A program made the position numbers and the translations under genes. From assembly GCF_013315695.1 (NCBI RefSeq), contig NZ_CP054353.1: 64,000 nt of DNA; one strand, given 5' to 3'. Numbering within the stretch: position 1 is the first letter of the stretch; each line of letters opens with the position of its first letter. Source of the DNA: Escherichia coli. Lineage in GTDB: Bacteria > Pseudomonadota > Gammaproteobacteria > Enterobacterales > Enterobacteriaceae. Of this stretch, positions 15,550 to 16,774 are shown piece by piece. Below the pieces are notes generated by a model. The model did no database searches, was not told where the DNA came from, and saw nothing but the letters and a program-made list of their open reading frames with translations.

Positions 15550-16774
15550 CTTTCTTATACCTTAATAAAACTTTATGGATTTTTTTCAATGTTTTTATTT
15601 TTTTTGGTCCTAATGAGAAAAAGAAATTAAAAAAGATCAAAAACAATATAATCAATGTAGATCTTTTAATTCCAAAAGTCCTAACATTAACATTTGGCGG
15701 CATTTTTAAAATATCATTCAAAATCTTATGTTGAATATCCCTAGAGTAATAAAAGTTCTCCTCCATCCATTTTTTTTTAATACGTGGAATGTGTTTAAAA
15801 TTAAACTTATTATAGTCAACAATAAGTCCAGATCTTGAAAAATAACATTGTCCATTGCAAGTATGATTAAATCCATTTATTAAATAAACATTAATTTTAT
15901 TAGCCAGACAATATATTGCGACCGAAGAAGATATTGTAATACAATATTCAACTTTAGAAATTAAAGAATCAATATTATCATCGCTAAATGTTATATTTTT
16001 CAAATCGAAGCGTTCAATGTATTCCTTAATATCAAAAACAATTGAGTCTGGTGATATAAGAGGATTTCGAGTTTTAAAAATAAAATTCATATGTGGATGT
16101 TTCTGAATTACTCTAATCAAAAAACGTGCATATTCTATCCTCTTTATTGGCGTCAAGGGCTCATTAACTTGATCAACGATAAGACAAGAATTCTCACTTT
16201 TTGCATTGATATTGACATTTTTAATCCATGGTGGACCAAAAAGAATTCCATTAAAAGGAACCCCTATTATTTTACAAATTTTTTTATACGTTTTAATATC
16301 TTTTGGGGAGTTAATAAGTAAATAGTGACTATTAGATTTTGAAATAAAAGCTTCTATCTGAGAAGTAAGGACAATGCCAGGAAAACAAGATATAATTATG
16401 GTATCTTTTGTTCTTACAGTATTAACAATTTCATGAAGGTCCTTCCCTCCTGTTGAACAAAAAATAAACTCAATATTAATAAAAGTGAAAAAACAAACAA
16501 AGTCATCAGGATAGAATACAACTATCTTTTCATCTAAATTTTTTTTTACAAACTCTTGTAGAGAATTATCCAAGCAGCAAAAAAATAAATCATATGAATC
16601 AACATCTATCTGCTCAAAAATATTTTTCAAAGCTAAAAAATGAGAATCATAACGAAAGACAAAACAAAGCACTTTTTTTCTAGTCATACCTGGTGGTACA
16701 TTCCGGGATGTCATAAAAATCTTTGTAATCTTTATTTTTTGATTTAATAAAATCCTTAATAATTCTAACAGCAT
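15539..16774 (-). CDS. neuE: NeuE (K1 region 2 protein with polyisoprenyl-binding motif)
   Basis: Longest ORF is 411 aa but overlaps neuC by 95 nt; an internal Met (MTRKKVLCF…, codon at 16685-16687) would start 2 nt after the neuC stop. Confidence 0.8.
   Translation of the reverse strand: MLLELLRILLNQKIKITKIFMTSRNVPPGMTRKKVLCFVFRYDSHFLALKNIFEQIDVDSYDLFFCCLDNSLQEFVKKNLDEKIVVFYPDDFVCFFTFINIEFIFCSTGGKDLHEIVNTVRTKDTIIISCFPGIVLTSQIEAFISKSNSHYLLINSPKDIKTYKKICKIIGVPFNGILFGPPWIKNVNINAKSENSCLIVDQVNEPLTPIKRIEYARFLIRVIQKHPHMNFIFKTRNPLISPDSIVFDIKEYIERFDLKNITFSDDNIDSLISKVEYCITISSSVAIYCLANKINVYLINGFNHTCNGQCYFSRSGLIVDYNKFNFKHIPRIKKKWMEENFYYSRDIQHKILNDILKMPPNVNVRTFGIKRSTLIILFLIFFNFFFSLGPKKIKTLKKIHKVLLRYKKDDI

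Follow-up and report, generated by a model that had tools for sequence, protein, structure and literature searches.

A start codon in the 3' end of neuC as the probable translation start of neuE in the Escherichia coli K1 capsule operon

Introduction

In bacterial operons, coupled overlapping gene pairs (the ATGA, TAATG and 8/11-nt classes) are adjacent genes on the same strand in which the downstream start lies near the upstream stop, within about 10 nucleotides (nt), and the Shine-Dalgarno sequence is weak or absent. Long same-strand overlaps can be start-site mispredictions, in which the longest open reading frame (ORF) is chosen and a downstream start would restore a short overlap. Here we examine one long overlap, between neuC and neuE of the polysialic-acid capsule operon of Escherichia coli K1, in a window of 64,000 nt (contig NZ_CP054353.1 of RefSeq assembly GCF_013315695.1; the window is the whole stretch of DNA analyzed, and positions are counted from its first letter).

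NeuE is described in the literature only as a "putative sialyltransferase" with a role in priming (PMC5517516). The start of neuE was placed at an ATG that gives a 95-bp overlap with neuC, citing Andreishcheva and Vann 2006 (PMC2408645). Steenbergen and Vimr (2008) marked translationally coupled ORFs in the capsule cluster in their Fig. 1 and reported C-terminal membrane-anchoring "PIRS" mutants at aa381 and aa385 (PMC2408645); this numbering fits a form of NeuE of 411 amino acids (aa). The start ambiguity is already on record, because three NeuE lengths circulate and the overlap has been described. It is an ordinary, documented start-site ambiguity in a known gene and not a new feature.

Results

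The evidence below points to the ATG at 16687-16685 on the minus strand (Met30 in the numbering of the 411-aa form) as the probable start of NeuE in E. coli K1, which would give a 382-residue protein with a GT-B fold. The preferred coding sequence (CDS), 15539..16687, begins MTRKKVLCFVFRYDSH and encodes a DUF6716/GT-B putative glycosyltransferase; it is favored by the RefSeq CDS, the N-termini of homologs, the related loci and a structure model.

The neuE frame is closed upstream by an in-frame TAA at 16778..16780, one codon before the ATG of Met1 (16772..16774). The longest neuE ORF runs from 16774 to 15539 on the minus strand, as do all features of the junction, and encodes 411 aa with the N-terminal sequence MLLELLRILLNQK. 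It overlaps neuC by exactly 95 nt (16680-16774), as a previous sequence-only reading of this DNA had stated. That reading had also named neuC and neuE correctly and had seen the internal Met of MTRKK at 16687-16685, which it placed 2 nt after the neuC stop. The Met30 ATG (16685..16687) in fact precedes the neuC stop codon TAG (16682-16680), with the two bases AC between them in ATGACTAG, and the genes overlap by 8 nt. A downstream Met that allows a tight coupled arrangement does exist, as had been proposed, with a geometry other than the one described, and two more in-frame candidates had been overlooked. The ATG of Met21 (MTSRNVPPGMTRKK, 16712..16714), the third in-frame ATG candidate, gives a 391-aa form that begins MTSRNVPPG and overlaps neuC by 35 nt; it is chosen by many automatic gene callers. 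A GTG at Val35 (16670..16672), a minor alternative, lies 7 nt after the neuC stop and gives 377 aa. Met30 falls within the distance of about 10 nt from the upstream stop that marks coupled pairs; Met1 (95 nt) and Met21 (35 nt) fall outside it. The other junctions of the operon overlap by 4 nt (kpsM-kpsT), 4 nt (neuD-neuB), 1 nt (neuB-neuA), 4 nt (neuA-neuC) and 11 nt (neuE-neuS), and a 95-nt overlap would be an outlier among them.

An exhaustive profile-free search recovered 175 NeuE relatives at E ≤ 1e-3, the nearest being 45-47% identical, and 35 homologs (18-47% identical to NeuE) were aligned. A counterpart of the 29-codon E. coli-specific open extension upstream of Met30 (16688..16774, in the +1 frame of the neuC 3' end) was absent from all 35. 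Among homologs with a match reaching their own N-terminus, residue 1 in most cases aligns within residues 26-34 of the 411-aa numbering. At the DNA level, the homolog starts at the equivalent position in 8/8 related loci examined. In six of these (L004, L010, L011, L013, L014, and L015), an in-frame stop lies 0-23 codons upstream and the interval up to the start is free of ATG, GTG and TTG; L017 lacks an alternative upstream start, and L016 has three upstream TTGs only. Related loci that contain an upstream gene show overlaps of 4, 1, 4, 4, 8, and 4 nt, and L016 shares the 8-nt geometry of the E. coli Met30 start. The two nearest relatives, L004 and L010, are fully syntenic (the order in L010 is neuB-neuA-neuC-neuE-neuS-kpsS-kpsC). 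In both, an in-frame stop is located 0-2 codons upstream of the neuE start, and neuE is read in +2 relative to neuC, vs. +1 in E. coli. Because the nearest relatives use another frame relative to neuC, the E. coli extension has no ancestor and cannot have been inherited. Judged by these comparisons, the 29-residue extension is not an ancestral or conserved part of NeuE, and the conserved NeuE enzyme begins at MTRKK.

The same data bear on the possibility that NeuE starts at ATG 16774 as a 411-aa protein with an E. coli-specific N-terminal amphipathic helix, either as the sole product or as a long isoform beside the 382-aa form. We consider this unlikely, as the extension is missing throughout the aligned homologs and could not exist in the nearest relatives. 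As a separate observation, the junction itself has been rebuilt between these organisms, with TGAATGA in one relative (L004:1500-1515) and TTAATG in the other (L010:2990-3005) vs. ATGACTAG in E. coli (window 16680-16690), and tight coupling has been kept.

Within the overlap, the NeuC protein is conserved across most of its length (NPY.K.N.L.N...IIK and YKDF.D.P), and the NeuC frame is therefore the one under selection. Overprinting, in which both frames would be conserved or open in relatives, was not seen, since only the NeuC frame is conserved. The open run that begins at ATG 16774 is the longest in the +1 frame of neuC, a point in favor of the 411-aa start. An open frame here is, however, expected by chance at an appreciable rate. 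We resampled synonymous codons from the codon usage of the operon while keeping the NeuC tail protein unchanged; the +1 frame was free of stops over 30 codons or more in 11% of the resamplings, the median open length was 23 codons, and 89% of the resamplings had an in-frame ATG upstream. The open frame is not longer than expected from the NeuC protein (P = 0.11), so the long ORF needs no special explanation and no selection for the extension. The extension is probably not, or only marginally, translated as NeuE.

The Met21 ATG is likewise a +1 reading of a conserved NeuC motif, YKDFYD (F-Y-D, TTT TAT GAC). A start at this middle ATG, 16714, is quite unlikely in our judgment. It looks like a by-product of the NeuC residues DFYD, RefSeq does not use it, and the nearest homologs lack anything corresponding to its nine added residues (MTSRNVPPG), which are modeled with low confidence. 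On the other side, one homolog (P0013) has an N-terminus of similar length that is bounded by a stop.

AlphaFold2 (AF2) was run on the 411-aa form with a 36-sequence alignment. The model, with a predicted local distance difference test score (pLDDT) of 89 and a predicted template modeling score of 0.88, has two Rossmann-like domains in a GT-B fold, and its Foldseek matches in the PDB were GT-B glycosyltransferases and UDP-GlcNAc 2-epimerases (E ∼1e-8). The first strand was modeled at residues 34-40 of the 411-aa numbering. Mean pLDDT was 52 for residues 1-10, 56 for residues 11-20, and 67 for residues 21-30, rising to 93 or above over roughly the next hundred; the low values in the extension arise partly by construction, as the alignment has no depth there. 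They are consistent with a predicted fold that excludes the extension. AF2 also draws a helix at residues 2-21, which would suit a 411-aa product, but it does so at a pLDDT of only 52-56. At the other end of the model, the C-terminal PIRS segment and the basic tail form one helix (residues 373-407, window 15539-15660, pLDDT mostly 84-94); Steenbergen and Vimr (2008) considered PIRS unlikely to be helical and more likely to be an amphipathic beta sheet.

The computed Shine-Dalgarno duplexes of the three neuE ATGs ranged from -0.9 to -3.5 kcal/mol vs. -6.6 to -9.4 kcal/mol for neuC, neuA, and neuB. We rejected these energies as a means of discriminating between the starts, because all three ATGs are weak. 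ATG 16774 lacks a Shine-Dalgarno sequence (best duplex -0.9 kcal/mol), and its use would require initiation on mRNA traversed by neuC ribosomes. ATG 16714 has a weak purine patch, AAAGA, 5 nt upstream, but the duplex is negligible there too (-0.9 kcal/mol). Weak initiation signals fit a start that relies on termination-reinitiation, and no other start codon lies as close to the neuC stop as ATG 16687.

Ribosomes that reinitiate after termination can also do so a few bases past the stop, which would suit the GTG at 16672, where the 377-aa form would begin without overlapping neuC. The L015 homolog uses a GTG, and some family members have 3-4 residues before the first strand (MKIGFVF...). We nevertheless regard this start as very unlikely: an ATG sits closer to the neuC stop, and none of the database entries examined uses the GTG. 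It would also leave 3 residues before the first strand, whereas the two nearest homologs keep 9 before FVFRYDSH, with basic residues that match MTRKK.

The CDS annotated by RefSeq with its pipeline PGAP is the 382-aa form in 7/7 records inspected. The sequence-only reading had called for a comparison with curated NeuE entries and had held sequence by itself to be insufficient for choosing the start. This was too pessimistic, as the comparative sequences, the structure model and RefSeq practice all favor the MTRKK Met. All three NeuE lengths occur in public collections under the name NeuE. Contig counts for the exact proteins in a public protein collection were at least 1000 for 391 aa, 871 for 382 aa, and 11 for 411 aa. 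The most frequent of these, the 391-aa protein, is also the cluster representative (P0001), which speaks for a start at ATG 16714, and the 411-aa entries deposited as NeuE speak for ATG 16774.

A negative complementation result with pSX93, a 3.07-kb HindIII-BamHI fragment (PMC2408645), has been quoted in support of an upstream start. We mapped the fragment ends on the window to HindIII 16348 and BamHI 13278 (3070 bp). The HindIII cut lies 339 nt downstream of Met30, so that even the shortest ATG-initiated form is missing its first 113 codons in pSX93. Since the fragment truncates every candidate form of neuE, it cannot discriminate between the starts, and we rejected it as support for the 411-aa form. 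We found no published test that discriminates between the candidate neuE starts.

The 171-nt junction is almost invariant, with three variable sites only among the intact K1 genomes aligned. Within-species polymorphism (328 complete K1 genomes) was considered as a discriminating test and set aside, the sequences being too uniform. At 16689 (minus strand), the alignment shows G in the window and T in six other intact K1 genomes and in SCU-306. This single nucleotide polymorphism (SNP) exchanges Arg and Ser in the NeuC tail, and Gly and Val at the residue preceding Met30 in the extension frame. In a 60-row sample of the 328 complete genomes, only the top row matched the window junction at 100% over the 171 nt; in the larger collection, at least 1000 contigs nonetheless encode exactly the 391-aa protein with Gly. 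The only SNP detected within the extension, in iso3702594, is silent in neuC and replaces Ile with Thr in the extension frame. It agrees with the comparative evidence, but the data are too few to carry much weight.

SCU-306 (93% identity) was rejected as a divergent allele on account of an indel-ridden assembly with fragmented neu genes. An A6 run is present at window ∼16737-16742 (AAATCAAAAAATAAAG); in SCU-306 it is reduced to A5, and this deletion fuses neuC with the open frame of the extension. A 711-aa "NeuC-NeuE fusion" protein (P0002, locus L002) was called on one Logan contig. We rejected it as a frameshift product; it most likely reflects a homopolymer (A6 to A5) sequencing error, because SCU-306 has many other homopolymer indels in addition to its fragmented neu genes.

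On its minus strand, the window contains the polysialic-acid capsule operon of E. coli K1 in the order kpsM, kpsT, neuD, neuB, neuA, neuC, neuE, and neuS, and kpsS adjoins it beyond neuS on the plus strand. The gene neuC (17855..16680, minus) encodes a UDP-GlcNAc 2-epimerase of 391 aa, identified by TIGR03568, Pfam Epimerase_2 and the RefSeq annotation; its product scored 441 bits against the NeuC_NnaA equivalog model TIGR03568 (cut-off 236). The neuE product belongs to DUF6716 (PF20471; 55.7 bits, cut-off 27) and is named "DUF6716 putative glycosyltransferase" in RefSeq; a model for NeuE was not found in NCBIfam. The gene neuS (15549..14320, minus) encodes 409 aa with a match to the alpha-2,8-polysialyltransferase family, and in both the ORF list and the RefSeq annotation its start overlaps the neuE stop by 11 nt (15539..15549, ATGATATTTGA). 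With the order neuB-neuA-neuC-neuE-neuS, the window has the sialic-acid and polysialyltransferase neighborhood expected of the NeuE family. Of 5426 complete E. coli genomes, 328 contain a 1.6-kb stretch spanning neuE, almost always with at least 99% identity. The region-2 genes (window 14320-20768) are very AT-rich, with a GC content of 26-32%, in agreement with the values for strain PA45B (PMC5654933); the low GC agrees with horizontal acquisition.

Among the related loci, a PF07388 gene lies directly 3' of the NeuE homolog in L010, L011, L012, L013, L014, L015, and L016; L004 ends just past the homolog, and L017 has a TPR-repeat gene in that place. The polysialyltransferase-family gene that follows the NeuE homolog can be far longer than neuS: in L013:4115-7122 and L014:1159-3522 we observed products of 787 aa and of 1204 aa, the latter with faint TPR hits. 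In L017:1-5182, a distant DUF6716 homolog (P0036) lies between a polysaccharide deacetylase gene and the gene for the TPR-repeat protein, and no sialic-acid genes were found around it in the 5 kb seen. The DUF6716 family may not be restricted to sialic-acid capsules.

Discussion

With Met30 as the start of NeuE, the first beta-strand (VLCFVF) would begin five residues into the protein. The ATG at 16687 lies five bases before the neuC stop, and ribosomes ending neuC could restart on neuE without a strong Shine-Dalgarno sequence. The overlaps of 1, 4, 4, 4, and 11 nt at the other operon junctions suggest the same termination-reinitiation arrangement. The 29 upstream codons would then be a +1 reading of the conserved NeuC C-terminal coding sequence that is stop-free by happenstance. 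We infer that neuE is initiated by coupling and that the upstream ATGs at 16774 and 16714 are not used.

Several points weigh against this assignment. The homolog N-termini are themselves gene-caller predictions, and that of P0013 is as long as the Met21 form, with a stop as its boundary. A naive count finds ∼3% of +1-frame positions in the neu genes to be at least 31 codons from the previous stop. A usable Shine-Dalgarno sequence is missing at ATG 16687: the window allele has an AGG, owing to its G at 16689, that is just 1 nt from the ATG, and other aligned genomes carry GTT in its place. Local mRNA folding is at background for all candidates and does not discriminate between them. Published experimental work on NeuE starts the gene at the ATG that overlaps neuC by 95 bp, and its residue numbers refer to the 411-aa form. 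Our literature searches found no experimental N-terminus, N-terminal sequencing or start-site data for NeuE.

There is a slim chance that E. coli K1 also initiates at 16774 or 16714 and makes a long NeuE isoform, with the extra 29 residues overprinted on the +1 frame of NeuC. Such an isoform would carry a young, E. coli-specific N-terminal extension, possibly one that tunes membrane association or the interaction with the NeuS/KpsC complex.

The assignment of the start to Met30 matters mainly for bookkeeping, as databases and papers variously give NeuE as 382, 391, or 411 aa long. Residue numbering shifts by 29 between the long and short forms, which affects for example the PIRS mutations aa381 and aa385. 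Part of neuC may be carried along in, or left out of, constructs for expression and designs for deletion. When neuE is cloned or neuC is cleanly deleted, the final 8 nt of neuC should be counted as belonging to neuE expression, possibly together with coupling to neuC translation. The finding raises no new biological question.

Compared with known cases, the 95-nt overlap resembles a start misprediction, in that it follows from the longest ORF and a downstream start gives a short overlap and matches the homologs. Unlike a misprediction made by software only, the long form of NeuE is also the one used by experimental groups. The gene and the ORF are those of the NeuE in the literature (411 aa, 95-bp overlap; Steenbergen and Vimr, 2008), but the comparative evidence puts the conserved protein 29 residues shorter. 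Among coupled overlapping pairs, neuC-neuE resembles the ATGA, TAATG and 8/11-nt classes in adjacency, shared strand, a start near the stop and a weak or absent Shine-Dalgarno sequence, and the pattern recurs at every other junction of this operon and at NeuE-family junctions in other organisms. With Met30 as the start, the pair, with the coupling that we propose for it, would show no structural difference from these classes.
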